Sequence record: MK931439.1
DNA: 43,130 bases
Source: Escherichia phage Sciku
Strand: one strand, 5' to 3'
Below the pieces are notes generated by a model that saw nothing but the letters and a program-made list of their open reading frames with translations, did no database searches and was not told where the DNA came from. The translations under genes were made by a program, and so were the position numbers. Below are positions 5,487 to 41,325 of this stretch, one piece after another. The number at the start of each line of letters is the position of its first letter. The first letter of the stretch is position 1.

Positions 5487-5508
5487 AAAGCCCCGAAAGG
5501 GGCTTTTT
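5487..5508 (+). terminator. rho-independent terminator
   Basis: AAAGCCCC-GAAA-GGGGCTTT hairpin followed by TT. Confidence 0.65.
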
Positions 5509-5572
5509 AGCGCCTGTGATTATTCCAGTTATTCCACTCAATTGTAAATGTTGGAATAAACTATTCGAATAG

Positions 5573-5601
5573 TTGACTTTTCACTAAAAATGTGCTAAGC
5601 T
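5573..5601 (+). promoter_or_regulatory. sigma70-like promoter (copy 1 of duplicated promoter-leader unit)
   Basis: TTGACT (5573-5578), 17-nt spacer, TAAGCT (5596-5601); palindrome CTATTCGAATAG abuts the -35 at 5561-5572. Confidence 0.5.
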
Positions 5602-5642
5602 CCACCTGAGCTTGTGAAGTATGAACAAGCGACCGCGGCGCG
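5573..5642 (+). repeat. conserved about 70-bp promoter-leader block, copy 1
   Basis: near-identical to 37503-37572 at a constant offset of 31930; contains a 38-nt identical core CCTGAGCTTGTGAAGTATGAACAAGCGACCGCGGCGCG. Confidence 0.7.
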
Positions 5643-5781
5643 GGCAGGTAACGGAGCGGGACGTAAGTCCTGAGTGTAGTTACGCTGACGCGTTCGGAAG
5701 GGCCATACTCTATTGCTTGTGTAAAAAGTAACTGGTTTACTGAGATTACGCCGTTTCTATGTTTAAATGATAAGGACTAGC

Positions 5782-5808
5782 GCCCAGCTTTAAGGCTGGG
5801 CTTTACTT
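5782..5808 (+). terminator. terminator-like hairpin closing promoter-leader unit 1
   Basis: GCCCAGC-N6-GCTGGGC stem followed by TTTACTT, just upstream of the spanin RBS. Confidence 0.45.
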
Positions 5809-6321: not shown

Positions 6322-6403
6322 TTGCCTTGCATGTTGGAATAATTTATTCTTGACATGTAAATCCGGGTGGCCCGGGTTCCAACGTCCAGGGGACATACTG
6401 AAT

Positions 6404-8157: not shown

Positions 8158-8173
8158 GGTTAAGTTATAATCG

Positions 8174-8197
8174 AGAGGGACTTCGGTCCCTCTTTTC
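8174..8197 (+). terminator. rho-independent terminator
   Basis: AGAGGGAC-TTCG-GTCCCTCT hairpin followed by TTTCATTT. Confidence 0.65.
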
Positions 8198-37426: not shown

Positions 37427-37455
37427 AGTATAGGATAGCGGGAATGTAAAAGCAA
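37427..37455 (-). promoter_or_regulatory. sigma70-like promoter for the leftward replication block
   Basis: minus strand: -35 TTGCTT (37455-37450), 17-nt spacer, -10 TATACT (37432-37427). Confidence 0.4.
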
Positions 37456-37502: not shown

Positions 37503-37531
37503 TTGACTTTTACTAAGAAATATGGTAAGCT
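37503..37531 (+). promoter_or_regulatory. sigma70-like promoter (copy 2 of duplicated promoter-leader unit)
   Basis: TTGACT (37503-37508), 17-nt spacer, TAAGCT (37526-37531); same architecture as 5573-5601. Confidence 0.5.
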
Positions 37532-37572
37532 CAGCCTGAGCTTGTGAAGTATGAACAAGCGACCGCGGCGCG
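37503..37572 (+). repeat. conserved about 70-bp promoter-leader block, copy 2
   Basis: near-identical to 5573-5642 with the same 38-nt core; weaker similarity continues for about 70 nt. Confidence 0.7.
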
Positions 37573-37717
37573 CGGCAGGCGAAACGAGCACGTGTAGCGT
37601 GTGGAGTGAGGCTCGCTAGCGCGTTTGGGAGGCCCCAAGTCTATTGTAATTCCAGCCTAAGTAGCTAAGTTACTGATTTGCCGTAGGTTAGAACCGCCAG
37701 CTCACTCACTCACTCTT

Positions 37718-37750
37718 GGTGCCTTCGGCACCACGTTCGTTTCGTTTCGC
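37718..37750 (+). terminator. terminator-like hairpin closing promoter-leader unit 2
   Basis: GGTGCC-TTCG-GGCACC hairpin followed by ACGTTCGTTTCGTTTCG; preceded by a (CTCA)x3 repeat. Confidence 0.4.
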
Positions 37751-37800: not shown

Positions 37801-37829
37801 TTGCACACCCCAACATAATAGGATACTAT
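37801..37829 (+). promoter_or_regulatory. sigma70-like promoter with AATAG-N4-CTATT operator (type B)
   Basis: -35 TTGCAC (37801-37806), 17-nt spacer, -10 TACTAT (37824-37829); palindrome AATAGgataCTATT 37817-37830. Confidence 0.5.
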
Positions 37830-37863
37830 TCACTTATCGAAACGAGACAGAGGAGTGAGGGCT

Positions 37864-38596: not shown

Positions 38597-38733
38597 TTTA
38601 GGATTTTACTGAGTGACTTACGCTGCTACACAGCAGCGTATCATTTTTCTCATTTTTGTCCTATTTCACCAAACGCAACAATCGAATCGACTATTGCAGG
38701 AGATGCAATAATACAAACACCAATAAAATTTAC

Positions 38734-38762
38734 TTGCACGCTGGGGAAGAATAGGATACTAT
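38734..38762 (+). promoter_or_regulatory. sigma70-like promoter with AATAG-N4-CTATT operator (type B)
   Basis: -35 TTGCAC (38734-38739), 17-nt spacer, -10 TACTAT (38757-38762); palindrome AATAGgataCTATT 38750-38763. Confidence 0.5.
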
Positions 38763-38885
38763 TCATTTACACAAACGAGAGGAGAGGCAGAATATGGTTA
38801 CTTTGATGATTATGGAGTTCGAAAACAGCGCTGCAACTTACCGCGACATGTTCAACGAAACGATTAGCTAAGCAGGAGAAATAAG

Positions 38886-39095
38886 ATGGTACAGAGATAC
38901 GAGATAATAAGATGGGGTCTGCCGGAGATGGCTAAGTACCCATACGGTGACTACGTTGAGTATGACAGCTATAAGGAACTGGAGGCCCGACTGGAAGAAG
39001 TCAACGCTGAGTTACAGAAATACAAAGACCAGTTCCCGGATTACGTCGAGTGCGCGAACTGCGGGTCGGTTACACATGTGGAAGGGGTGGATTGA
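38886..39095 (+). CDS. small hypothetical protein, paralog A (MVQRY family)
   Basis: 69 aa; N-terminus MVQRYEI and Y-x-EY-x-SY-x-ELEA pattern shared with the next gene. Confidence 0.45.
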   Translation: MVQRYEIIRWGLPEMAKYPYGDYVEYDSYKELEARLEEVNAELQKYKDQFPDYVECANCGSVTHVEGVD

Positions 39096-39349
39096 TGGTG
39101 CAGAGATACGACTTAACAGAATACTACGTGAGTGGTGCGGTAGATATAACGCCTGTCCCGGACTCGCATGAAGGGCGTTATGTAAGCTACGAAGACTACG
39201 CGCAACTCGAAGCTGAACTCATGAAAGTAAAAGCCGCAGCCCGTTGTCTTGTGCGAGAAGCAGGTAAGGTGTATAGCGATTATAGTGACGTTATAGCACC
39301 TGAGTTTGTAGACCAGCAAACCATACACGAACTAGGTATTCTGTTATGA
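39095..39349 (+). CDS. small hypothetical protein, paralog B (MVQRY family)
   Basis: 84 aa from ATG 39095; N-terminus MVQRYDL; same pattern as 38886-39095. Confidence 0.45.
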   Translation: MVQRYDLTEYYVSGAVDITPVPDSHEGRYVSYEDYAQLEAELMKVKAAARCLVREAGKVYSDYSDVIAPEFVDQQTIHELGILL

Positions 39350-39639
39350 GCCTTGCAACTGACATCCTGAAACGCAGCGGCCTTGCGCCGCTGTCGCCGA
39401 GAGCAAACACTCAGATATACAAGCGCCGCCGTAATACGCTGTACCCAGAGATACAGGAACGACGTAAAGCTATCCGCGCCTGTGGATTCCAGAACGGGAA
39501 GGCCGTGAATCTCGGTGAGTTTAAAACACAAGAACGCGCCGCAATCGCTAATCGACTATTTAATTACTGGAAATCGCTGGGGTACGATGATATTCCGACG
39601 AAACCCCAGAGACGACAATACATCTGGAGGCACAAATGA
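39346..39639 (+). CDS. hypothetical protein
   Basis: 97 aa basic ORF with ATGA overlaps on both sides. Confidence 0.4.
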   Translation: MSLATDILKRSGLAPLSPRANTQIYKRRRNTLYPEIQERRKAIRACGFQNGKAVNLGEFKTQERAAIANRLFNYWKSLGYDDIPTKPQRRQYIWRHK

Positions 39640-40073
39640 CTACTATCGCGTTTGACGGAAAGACGATGGCCTGTGACACCCGAGTAACCGGAGACCACAT
39701 CTACAACACAGATACCAAGATATATGAGAACGAGTTTGTTGTTATCGGTGTAGCAGGCAATGCTGAGGCTGGTATCCTTTTAGTGAAGGACGATAGTATT
39801 TTAGTGCCTAAGCACTACGATTTTGATTTCTCTGCTTTGGTGTGGGTTAAAGACATCGAAACGTTGTGCAAAGTAGAATTCTATAAATCATGGGATTGTG
39901 CACTAAGTTCGGTTATCCCTGTTGCAGATGGTTTTGCCGCCGTCGGTTCCGGTGCACCTTATGCACTGGCGGCTATGTATTTAGGTAATACGGCAACACG
40001 TGCAATTACTATAGCAGAGCAATTCGACCCTAACACCGGCGGCAATATTATTACCAAACAACTATTAGGATAA
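39636..40073 (+). CDS. HslV-like (proteasome-type Ntn-hydrolase) peptidase
   Basis: N-terminal MTTIAFDG with Thr2 as candidate nucleophile; GVAGNAEAG and AVGSGAPYALAA align with HslV GFAGGTADA and GSGGPYAQAA as recalled; 145 aa; GGAGG RBS. Confidence 0.6.
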   Translation: MTTIAFDGKTMACDTRVTGDHIYNTDTKIYENEFVVIGVAGNAEAGILLVKDDSILVPKHYDFDFSALVWVKDIETLCKVEFYKSWDCALSSVIPVADGFAAVGSGAPYALAAMYLGNTATRAITIAEQFDPNTGGNIITKQLLG

Positions 40074-40132
40074 TTCCTAACCGTGCTATCCTCCAGTTAC
40101 TGCATACTTAATACGCACCTGGAGGATTCATC

Positions 40133-40441
40133 TTGGATAAATTTACTGAAACAGTGCCGGTGTGGCTTCTCACCGCCGCACTGGTCGGTGGATTGGTCGG
40201 ACTAAGACAACATAAAAAGTCTATATCCGGTCCAGTCGACGGACTGGTATTTCTTCTCACCGGCTTCGCGTGTGCCGTTTTCGGTGCACCTCTTGCCGCT
40301 CAATGGTTCGGTATTACCGGTGAGCGCGAGATAGCTGGCCTCGGATTCATCATTGCCGTTCTCTGGATGCCTATCTATTCCCGCCTTTCTGGCATTGTCG
40401 CCGGAGAATACATCGCACGTCGCGGAGGTGGCAATGAATGA
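40133..40441 (+). CDS. putative holin
   Basis: 102 aa with several predicted transmembrane helices and a charged C-terminus; immediately upstream of the endolysin. Confidence 0.45.
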   Translation: MDKFTETVPVWLLTAALVGGLVGLRQHKKSISGPVDGLVFLLTGFACAVFGAPLAAQWFGITGEREIAGLGFIIAVLWMPIYSRLSGIVAGEYIARRGGGNE

Positions 40442-40715
40442 GTTATTCTGGTTTGGCGGTATGCTCGCAATCGGGGGCACATCGCTGTTTAACGTATACC
40501 ACCCCAGTGTAGACGATGGCCTGTTTGGTCGTGTGCTGTATATTCTCACTGCTATTGTCTGCGCTGCCGGTTGTATCCACCTGTTACAGGGCAGCGTGTC
40601 ACCAACGTTGCCGGAAACACTAATCACCCTGGTAGCGCTGCGACAGATTCGTCAATCGTGGCTGCATTACCAGTCGAAAGGAGGACATAAGCGTGTCTCG
40701 AAACATTTCAGATAA
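40434..40715 (+). CDS. membrane protein, possible second holin / antiholin
   Basis: 93 aa from ATG 40434; hydrophobic helices FWFGGMLAIGGTSLF and VLYILTAIVCAAGCIHLL; overlaps both neighbours. Confidence 0.4.
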   Translation: MNELFWFGGMLAIGGTSLFNVYHPSVDDGLFGRVLYILTAIVCAAGCIHLLQGSVSPTLPETLITLVALRQIRQSWLHYQSKGGHKRVSKHFR

Positions 40716-41196
40716 TGGATTGCAGTTCAAGAAAGCGTGGGAGAAGTTTCGTGGAACTGCGTACAAAGCCACAAAGAACGAGAAATACTGGACTATAGGC
40801 TGGGGCCATACCGGGCCAGATGTGTACGAAGGGCAGAAGATTACCGAGGGTCAGGGGTTGCTGTTACTTAACCGTGATATGCAGTGGGCGGTGAAAGCAG
40901 TAGACGAGGTGGCGCATCCATCGCTTACCCAGGCCCAGTTTGATGCCGTTGTTGACCTGGTGTTTAACGCCGGAACTGGTGTTATCGCAGCGACTACCGG
41001 AACCGGTAAGGCGCTACGGCAGGGGGACATCGCAGCCTTACGGCACAAGATGAGCCAGTTCATTAACCAGCGCAACCCTAAGACCGGTAAACTTGAACCT
41101 GTTCTGGGCCTGCGCCGTCGTGTAGCGGGTCGCCTGGCGTTGTTCGACGGTAAACCGTGGCAGGAGGCGGAGGATATCGGGAGGGCTGTTAAATGA
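40693..41196 (+). CDS. endolysin, phage lysozyme (GH24-type)
   Basis: EKFRGTAYKATKNEKYWTIGWGHTG matches the catalytic Glu ... TIG-GHTG region of lambda/P22/T4-type lysozymes; QFDAVVDLVFNAG; GTG start with AAGGAGGA RBS. Confidence 0.85.
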   Translation: MSRNISDNGLQFKKAWEKFRGTAYKATKNEKYWTIGWGHTGPDVYEGQKITEGQGLLLLNRDMQWAVKAVDEVAHPSLTQAQFDAVVDLVFNAGTGVIAATTGTGKALRQGDIAALRHKMSQFINQRNPKTGKLEPVLGLRRRVAGRLALFDGKPWQEAEDIGRAVK

Positions 41197-41325
41197 TGGA
41201 CGAATACGAAGGTGTTTAGTATTATGGTTAAGCCAAGTTTTTCGTATTTGCATACTAAGCCTTGGTAAACCTGAAGCAGCAGCCCAAGCGGTGGAGACTG
41301 CGTAGGGTTCAGAGGCTTATGACCG

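Follow-up and report, generated by a model that had tools for sequence, protein, structure and literature searches.

Among phages, the main example known to us of an antiterminator RNA that needs no protein factor comes from HK022-like lambdoid phages, whose put RNAs act in this way. The two put RNAs of HK022, putL and putR, are factor-independent and suppress intrinsic as well as Rho-dependent terminators without phage proteins, via the beta' zinc-binding domain (PMC9378689). Here we analyze an element of comparable layout in Escherichia phage Sciku (sequence record MK931439.1; 43,130 nucleotides, the whole of which is referred to as the window). It is a promoter-leader unit that occurs twice on the + strand, copy 1 from position 5573 onward and copy 2 from 37503 onward. 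Copy 2, on which we focus, can with high confidence be regarded as a second, diverged copy of a module made up of a predicted extended -10 sigma-70 promoter and a structured leader RNA.

The likeness to put is one of arrangement. In both cases the RNA lies right after a sigma-70 promoter, a predicted one in Sciku, and on the operon strand (putL starts at +3). Both comprise two stem-loops with bulges, and in both two diverged copies, sharing one part and differing in another, head two operons of a single phage. No dedicated phage protein is needed by put, and none is recognisable here. Homology was rejected, however, by comparison with shuffled sequences: local alignment of both copies against putL and putR (NC_002166) gave a best score of 18 versus a shuffled mean of 14.4, a score reached by 79 of 1000 shuffles. 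Neither of our covariance models, R1 and R2, gave a match in the HK022 region. The two systems also differ in size, with a 5' domain of ~90 nt followed by a 100-nt tail here against ~70 nt in put, and in context, since most relatives of Sciku have a single copy ahead of late genes and the phage is virulent, not lambdoid. For the Sciku RNA, polymerase binding and antitermination are proposed by analogy.

Lambda-type nut sites consist of boxA and a 15-nt boxB hairpin with a GNRA-like pentaloop, and work with an arginine-rich protein of the N type. The nutL and nutR sites resemble the Sciku units in being two RNA sites that follow two promoters and combine a small hairpin with a conserved single-stranded element. 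By inspection, though, the units contain no boxA (CGCUCUUUA-like), only CUCUAUUG or GCUAUAUUG, and the loop of their 5'-terminal hairpin, P1, is the 9-nt GAAGUAUGA, AGAUAU in the E-type variant or a 3-nt UUC in Jerseyvirus, rather than a GNRA-like pentaloop. The Q-dependent lambda late leader (PR', qut, 6S and tR') offers another parallel, having a promoter without the usual operator, a non-coding leader of ~200 nt and an end hairpin, all before structural genes. The lambda leader, however, has no known need for a conserved RNA fold, while the end hairpin of Sciku would probably terminate poorly, and a Q-like gene was not recognised. Finally, the 5' untranslated region of E. coli ompA and the 5' stem-loops of T7 class III messages also place a hairpin at the 5' end of a highly expressed late mRNA, and RNase III sites of the T7 type are likewise long irregular hairpins with an internal loop in an untranslated region. 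Stabilisers and RNase III sites of this kind tolerate sequence change, whereas the RNA described here is ~98% conserved, including loops and the unpaired tail.

A duplicated promoter-leader unit

Positions 37503-37572 are 87% identical to 5573-5642 over 70 nt (repeat family D2 of the window), at a start-to-start spacing of 31,930 bp, and 38 nt are identical between the copies (5605-5642 and 37535-37572). Beyond the 70-nt repeat, weaker and patchy homology extends for ~100 nt more, to about +140, and the differences between the two copies in the homologous stretch are compensatory. A covariance model built from an alignment of 28 sequences without copy 2 (R1; R2 is a broader model) finds exactly two matches in the window: copy 1 at 5608-5743 with 173 bits, and copy 2 at 37538-37676 with 74 bits (E 2e-14; 74-97 bits across model runs). 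The repeat is far above chance, given that the unit is conserved across hundreds of related genomes. Sciku belongs to Kagunavirus (Guernseyvirinae) and is close to Escherichia phage Shashou (MK931440.1), to which the copy 1 region is 100% and the copy 2 region 99.8% identical. The layout of open reading frames at ~38.8-41 kb (compared over 38700-41200) differs between the two phages, making Sciku a close relative with a distinct genome.

A conserved RNA fold

Relatives of the leader were gathered from IMG/VR, metagenomes and GTDB genomes. In a plain MAFFT alignment of 28 sequences, 96.4% of cells are paired, versus 30-36% when the partner is slid by 1-3 columns, and the covariation score is matched by none of 500 shuffles. 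Extending the set to 52 distinct sequences from both genera, Kagunavirus and Jerseyvirus, gives 94.2% paired cells versus at most 39% when slid, with changes on both sides at 18 of 34 pairs and a score of 0.234 versus 0.090; this larger alignment was made to the model and so leans its way, but the margin is large. From the same alignment RNAalifold independently recovers P1, P2a, P3 and P4. When folded singly, copy 1, copy 2, an E-type copy 2 and the copy of Jerseyvirus Ent1 each form P1 plus one long hairpin. The folded strand is that of the predicted transcript, because G·U pairs are conserved on the + strand only.

Numbering the fold from G1 (5608 in copy 1, 37538 in copy 2), P1 pairs positions 3-8 with 18-23, P2 pairs 26-28 with 88-90 and 30-35 with 82-87, P3 pairs 38-40 with 78-80 and 41-45 with 72-76, and P4 pairs 50-55 with 60-65. 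In copy 2 this places the 5'-terminal hairpin P1 at 37538-37560 (+ strand; stem 37540-37545/37555-37560, with the loop given above), and the covariance model and the minimum free energy (MFE) fold both give P2-P3-P4 as one long irregular hairpin of ~65 nt at 37563-37628. In copy 1, the MFE structure of the leader core (P1, P2-P4 and the start of the tail; 5608-5743, + strand) equals the one drawn by hand, with a z score of -3.3. P1 appears in every single-sequence MFE fold and is 99-100% paired in the alignments. Three of its pairs are changed on both sides between Kagunavirus and Jerseyvirus (UACGCU-UUC-AGCGUA in the latter), and the E-type variant reads GCUUGUG-AGAUAU-CGCAAGC. One P2 pair is seen as C-G, U-A and A-U; in the 52-sequence alignment all eight P3 pairs and four of the six P4 pairs change on both sides, P4 taking at least six distinct helix sequences. 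Between P3 and P4, a purine-rich internal loop extends the helix by non-canonical pairs that were recognised by eye: G46·A71, 47-70 (G·U or A-U) and A48·G69. RNAalifold adds 49-68 (G·U, G-C or A-U) and offers C50-G67 as an alternative partner for C50, leaving a 2-nt bulge.

The conserved string UUCGGAAGGGCC comes next after P2-P4 and is followed by a tail of ~100 nt and then a GC-rich hairpin. Past +91 the tail is 95% conserved in Kagunavirus and has little supported pairing. In copy 2 it occupies 37629-37716 (+ strand), is mostly unpaired, and contains GGGAGGCCCC, TCTATTG (37640-37646), AAGTTACTGA (37667-37676) and (CTCA)x3 (37701-37712). The (CTCA)n microsatellite before the hairpin (37701-37715) has n = 3 here and 4 and 6 in relatives (L006, L077, L010), and E-type leaders have (GTGA)3 in its place. 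The hairpin itself (37717-37733, + strand) is TGGTGCC-TTC-GGCACCA, with seven pairs, five of them GC, and a loop of 3 nt, and is followed by CGTTCGTTTC.

Much of this organization had been anticipated by a first-pass annotation made from the letters alone. Its second unit copy 31,930 bp from the first, with the same promoter spacing and an identical 38-nt core, is borne out, as is the (CTCA)x3 repeat before the terminal hairpin. That hairpin exists as well, but the TTCG loop assigned to it is wrong, because one G was counted twice: the sequence is GGTGCC-TTC-GGCACC at 37718-37732, with T37717-A37733 as a seventh pair. The annotation was also right to call the leader a duplicated unit, while its essential content, a folded RNA with strong covariation, had gone unrecognised.

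Several further pairings were considered and set aside. A pseudoknot of the P1 loop (AGUAU with AUACU at +98 to +102) was rejected; +101 varies freely (C, G, U, A) with the loop unchanged. A helix GAGUGU/AUACUC was rejected on the same grounds. A fifth helix, P5 (AGUAAC/UUUACU), is 85-86% paired with little covariation and many uncompensated changes, too weak to count as supported. As to an alternative hairpin CCGC-GGC-GCGG or a shifted P2 register, the switch between C-G, U-A and A-U favours the long-range P2. P1 was also considered as a widespread motif: a degenerate scan of IMG/VR returned at least 109 matches outside the family, and those listed include one independent, fully complementary stem, which lies inside a coding region, the level expected by chance. 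Separately, a Gammaproteobacteria metagenome-assembled genome (JBNKYV010000212.1; L078, 4957-4982, minus strand) carries 25-26 nt identical to P1 and its flanks (GAGCTTGTGAAGTATGAACAAGCGA). This stretch sits in an element of ~330 nt with inverted-repeat ends of ~55 nt and a fold z score of -8.6, upstream of an MMPL-family gene, in an unrelated context.

The covariation bears directly on whether the unit works as RNA at all. It might instead be a DNA-level site (an operator, origin, packaging or recombination site) or a small protein gene, and two observations point that way: hypothetical proteins are annotated over the copies in Shashou (CPT_Shashou_007 at 5621-5731, + strand, over copy 1, and CPT_Shashou_056 at 37531-37638, - strand, over copy 2), and copy 2 adjoins the primase-helicase block, a frequent neighborhood of origins. 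Yet the compensatory changes, with G-U pairs conserved on the + strand only, indicate a folded + transcript, and the phage's operator-like palindrome (see below) is absent from the unit. The + strand open reading frame starting at ATGAACAAGCG (MNKRPRR...) varies from 9 to 48 amino acids over 26 versions through frameshifts and stops, and E-type and Jerseyvirus members have no start codon. We consider these readings very improbable, with DNA-site and coding functions essentially excluded; the two Shashou proteins are probably over-calls, repeated in many deposited genomes.

No Rfam family accounts for the fold. Release 15 gave no match in the whole window at gathering thresholds, and for both copies at E up to 10 only chance-level hits of at most 18 bits, far under the thresholds; Rfam holds no put family, and the HK022 put region gives no match either. 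A tRNA/tmRNA scan of the window found nothing. No homologue occurs in 5,426 complete E. coli genomes, and a host or prophage origin was rejected for this reason. In the literature that we searched on Kagunavirus, Guernseyvirinae and Jerseyvirus RNA we found no description of the element; the single transcriptome paper (PMC12645636), a time course of Kagunavirus vB_Eco_K1B4, gives expression at gene level only. K1B4 is a near relative of ST20, a phage that carries both copies.

Distribution in the Guernseyvirinae

In the phage collection, the Kagunavirus form of the element occurs at 222 places in 180 records. Copy 1 is present in all of them, at 95-99% identity in 174, and copy 2 in about a quarter (~42 of the 180, against ~138 with one copy) and in no Jerseyvirus record. 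Copy 2 comes in at least five sequence types, and there is exchange between the loci: a C-type copy 2 (L022) equals a copy 1 variant (L009) in P2-P4. Another 269 records, all Jerseyvirus (e.g., Ent1), carry a diverged homologue once each (35-39 bits, E ~1e-5 to 1e-6), between the terminator after a Hoc-like gene and the Rz spanin gene, which is the copy 1 slot. The ~449 element-bearing records, with ~490 instances between them, compare with ~461 records in which the capsid protein is at least 80% identical, and the element is thus essentially universal in the subfamily. The first-pass annotation had named conservation in related phages as a test of the unit, whose failure would have counted against it; the unit is kept in hundreds of genomes.

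Common to both genera are the P2 sequence, the internal-loop pattern, UUCGGAAGGGCC, CUAU(A)UUGCUU, AGAUU(A)CGCCGU and a compensated end hairpin, and the string ACCGCGG.GCGG ... ACGC.UUCGGAAGGGCC is found in phages of both. P1 and P3-P4 keep the same fold with different sequences. Local conservation, compared over 31 distinct Kagunavirus loci, is highest in the RNA 5' domain, with a mean identity of 98.4%, followed by the RNA tail (95.3%), the spanin genes (91%), the scaffold/capsid genes (88%) and the upstream gene (65%).

Phages with one copy have other promoters and leaders at the copy 2 place, as seen in Kagunavirus K1H and in Ent1. The promoters there lack an operator (K1H, L079 4879-5240, TTGACA-16-TAAAAT; Ent1, L103 9437-9900, TTGACA-17-TAAGTT) and precede a non-coding, hairpin-containing stretch of 300-450 nt, after which comes a type-B promoter (a class described below). 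R1 and R2 miss the early leaders of K1H and Ent1, as well as Serratia phage Eta. The two early leaders do share the tail island G.CUAU(A)UU ... AAG.UACUGA, and each may be a functional analogue of the missing leader with an unrelated 5' sequence.

Genomic setting and promoters

The surroundings of copy 1 can be read from the Shashou annotation. Upstream, a terminator (5487-5508) closes the head-morphogenesis and Ig-like genes; downstream follow, in order, the i-spanin, o-spanin, scaffold, major capsid, connector and tail-tube genes. Copy 2 has a leftward helix-turn-helix (HTH) gene and the primase-helicase block on its left side, and on its right small rightward genes leading to an HslV-like gene, holins and endolysin; on the Shashou map the rightward run continues past endolysin round to terminase and portal. 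Shashou also has an annotated intein in its helicase gene (~26.2-27.25 kb).

The predicted promoter of copy 2 (class A; 37503-37531, + strand) consists of a -35 hexamer TTGACT (37503-37508), a 17-nt spacer, TG at 37523-37524 and a -10 hexamer TAAGCT (37526-37531). That of copy 1 (5573-5601, + strand) reads TTGACT-17-TGcTAAGCT, and a palindrome, AACTATTCGAATAGTT (5557-5572), abuts its -35 hexamer. Hexamers and spacing are the same in both copies, and TGn before TAAGCT makes an extended -10. Among relatives TGnTAAGCT is invariant with n variable; Jerseyvirus has TAGACT-17-TGtTACGCT at the equivalent place, so that TGnTA(A/C)GCT is invariant over sequence types and both genera. The evidence that class-A sites are promoters is therefore good but indirect, resting on TGnTAAGCT being kept while n varies and on the Jerseyvirus equivalent being in place. 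A generic promoter scan omits these sites, since TAAGCT agrees with the -10 consensus in just three positions of six. The fold starts ~7-9 nt past the -10 hexamer in Jerseyvirus as well as in both copies. With the transcription start that we infer from the sequence, P1 begins 0-2 nt from the predicted 5' end in both copies and both genera, at +3 in Kagunavirus and ~+1 in Jerseyvirus.

Two other promoter-like sites flank copy 2. A leftward site on the - strand (37427-37455, read from 37455 to 37427; TTGCTT-17-TATACT) lies ahead of the HTH gene (37395 to 37213, minus), which matches the PHROG excisionase/transcriptional regulator, and a type-B promoter (37801-37830, + strand; TTGCAC-17-TACTAT at 37801-37829; family D3, inverted repeat I1) carries the palindrome AATAGGATACTATT over its -10. 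Both likewise fall under the hexamer thresholds of the generic scan. The sequences of these two sites are as the first-pass annotation gave them, and its picture agrees with ours: a duplicated promoter-leader unit set between divergent genes, a leftward HTH gene on one side and small rightward genes on the other, with a promoter from a second class after it. Its view of the interval as the main early control region holds only in part: the divergent promoters are there, while the unit is an optional paralogue of the late-operon leader.

The motif AATAG-N4-CTATT occurs at 11 sites in the window versus 1.3 expected, a number reached by none of 100 shuffles. Eight are exact (3905, 14256, 21426, 27577, 31462, 33922, 37817 and 38750) and three have one mismatch (5568, 33966 and 41481). 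All exact sites except 21426 are in intergenic promoter regions (type-B or leftward replication-gene promoters), and the motif overlaps the -10 hexamer at the sites inspected. This would suggest one regulator acting over a regulon of ~8 promoters. By the window scan the motif is absent from both RNA-unit promoters, although the type-B promoter neighboring copy 2 has it. Class-A promoters thus form a class apart, whose regulation is presumably different. Upstream of copy 1 only, TGGAATAA/TTATTCCA repeats and the palindrome AACTATTCGAATAGTT lie within 5520-5572; TGGAATAA recurs at 6335-6342, upstream of the scaffold gene, and Jerseyvirus (L080, ~1885-1925) has ATTCCTT-N13-AAGGAAT at the place equivalent to the upstream palindrome. 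These elements may be where a regulator of the (presumably late) promoter of the head genes binds.

Leader or small RNA

Judged by its position, the primary copy serves throughout the Guernseyvirinae as leader of the spanin-scaffold-capsid-tail-tube operon. How far its transcript reaches depends on the terminal hairpins. That of copy 1 (5782-5801, + strand) is GCCCAGC-TTTAAG-GCTGGGC followed by TTTACTTAT, 15 nt before the ribosome-binding site of the spanin gene, and in relatives one of its pairs varies between A-U, C-G and U-A (GCCCCGC/GCGGGGC, GCCCTGC/GCAGGGC); the Jerseyvirus counterpart is GCCCGGC-UUAC-GCCGGGC. A lenient scan flags these end hairpins, and the tails that follow, UUUACUUAU in copy 1, CGUUCGUUUC in copy 2 and UUAGCGUAU in Jerseyvirus, are weak U tracts. 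Termination at the copy 2 hairpin is doubtful because of its poor U tract. Another conserved hairpin lies directly before the ribosome-binding site of the scaffold gene (6365-6377; L080 2753-2769). It is compensatory between the genera (CCGGG-UGG-CCCGG vs CACCGGG-AGG-CCCGGUG), and in Ent1 it is annotated as a terminator, yet lacks a U tract.

We think it probable that the RNA forms the 5' end of the operon transcript and works in cis, and is not a terminated small RNA, because the U tracts are weak and copy 1 is the sole promoter candidate for the scaffold and capsid genes. Ahead of those genes the generic scan, to which class-A promoters are likewise invisible, shows no further promoter-like site on the + strand, and copy 1 follows the strong terminator at 5487-5508. 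An abundant trans-acting RNA of 190-200 nt, ending at the terminal hairpin or cut off, would be laid out much as the 6S RNA of lambda, from PR' to tR'. Each copy does have its own promoter and a GC hairpin ~190 nt downstream, the genes past copy 2 have a promoter of their own 60 nt further on, and K1H and Ent1 also show a promoter, 300-450 nt of non-coding sequence, a hairpin and a type-B promoter at that place. We nevertheless find this improbable in view of the U tracts (UUUACUUAU in copy 1, UUAGCGUAU in Jerseyvirus, ACGUUCGUUUCG in copy 2) and of the position of copy 1 ahead of genes with no other promoter candidate. Stretches of at least 12 nt complementary to other phage transcripts are no more frequent than expected by chance, and the RNA has no E. 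coli homologue.

Possible modes of action

For a leader acting in cis, a put-like modification of the transcribing polymerase is the likeliest single mechanism, a choice that we put forward tentatively. The folded 5' domain would engage the RNA polymerase that has just made it, and elongation would then resist pausing and termination. Transcripts from these operator-less promoters would thereby run through the hairpin of the leader itself, past the terminator that follows the capsid gene (8173-8194) and past those that interrupt the rightward operon (38619-38640 and more beyond it, as annotated in Shashou). As a second effect, P1 at the 5' end would protect the mRNA from 5'-end-dependent decay. 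The very high conservation of loops and unpaired parts argues for a specific conserved partner. Put-like action is favored because the module is always fused to a dedicated promoter of its own and has a two-hairpin 5' domain at the transcript start, because it heads both long rightward units, each punctuated by terminator-like hairpins, and because no Q or N protein was recognised: PHROGs scans of ~20 small proteins found no Q-like, N-like or antitermination family, which is no proof of absence. The explanation as a whole, joining the identity of the module, a leader acting in cis, a put-like effect on polymerase and 5' protection, is the best we can offer, at rather less than even confidence. 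On the same reading, the element might be a second, evolutionarily independent class of factor-free antiterminator RNA, used by all Guernseyvirinae for the head operon, which we regard as speculative; equally speculative is that this class would serve the rightward operon of some of these phages too.

A number of observations weigh against put-like action. The transcription start comes from sequence, the resemblance to putL and putR is confined to position and the two-hairpin layout with none in sequence, and most relatives have one copy, so that a two-operon logic is not general. A type-B promoter lies 60 nt after copy 2 and another (38733) after the first rightward terminator, and the downstream genes are thus not strictly dependent on read-through. 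Terminators after capsid genes are often partially read through without any antiterminator. P1 and P3-P4 are strongly different between the genera, which is awkward for contact with an invariant polymerase surface, and the conserved unpaired tail is left unexplained.

The position of P1 raises the possibility that the element is an mRNA stabiliser, a processing site, or both. P1 would keep RppH and RNase E from attacking the message in a 5'-end-dependent way, much as the hairpins of the ompA 5' untranslated region or of T7 late mRNA do. P2-P4, with ~27 stacked pairs and an internal loop, would be a site of the RNase III type, comparable to those in T7 or in the leader of lambda N, and cutting there would fix where the mature mRNA begins and how long this very highly expressed message lasts. 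P1 is indeed 5'-terminal at the predicted start in both copies and both genera, the extended hairpin matches RNase III substrates in length and internal-loop layout, the module heads the scaffold/capsid operon, the one that needs the highest expression, and GC hairpins stand directly before both the spanin and the scaffold ribosome-binding sites. Structure alone would suffice for these roles, however, as against the 98% identity in loops and junctions and the 100-nt unpaired tail, and removal of P1 by RNase III would make its conservation pointless for the mRNA. We hold this explanation to be unlikely, though worth serious attention.

The conserved loops could also point to a docking site for a phage or host protein, either in nut-like antitermination through a small phage protein or as a translational, autoregulatory operator with feedback by scaffold or capsid protein (cf. 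the P22 scaffolding protein). Loop and junction sequences are invariant within a genus and switch jointly between genera (the P1 loop; GGAG/AGUGUA versus GAAG/AGCGUA), the pattern expected if they co-evolve with a partner encoded by the phage. No function is assigned to many of the small early proteins, and copy 1 lies directly before the spanin, scaffold and capsid genes. Against this, no N-like, Q-like or known RNA-binding family was recognised among the ~20 small proteins, no boxA/boxB consensus is present, and an operator for autoregulation by head proteins makes little sense before early genes, where copy 2 is found. On balance a protein-binding leader seems to us distinctly unlikely, and put-like modification of polymerase by a leader acting in cis remains the reading that we prefer.

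Implications

The Guernseyvirinae are virulent phages of Salmonella and E. coli that are much used in therapy and biocontrol. About 450 of their genomes, many from candidate phages for therapy or food safety, carry the element unannotated or mis-called as a hypothetical protein. Comparative evidence places it in a structured RNA family, well supported and previously undescribed, by which the head-operon leader is marked throughout a phage subfamily; it is more conserved than the capsid gene and located at the spot that governs scaffold and capsid output. These phages have no RNA polymerase of their own, and the small proteins scanned include no recognisable regulator of the Q or N type, which raises the question of how late transcription is timed and boosted with the host enzyme. 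A promoter-coupled RNA with a defined fold, natural compensatory variants and a natural duplication provides a testable handle on it. If the RNA is a stabiliser or processing signal, it would provide a leader for high expression in E. coli and Salmonella that is both compact and portable. Should it act on polymerase, RNA-only antitermination would extend beyond HK022.

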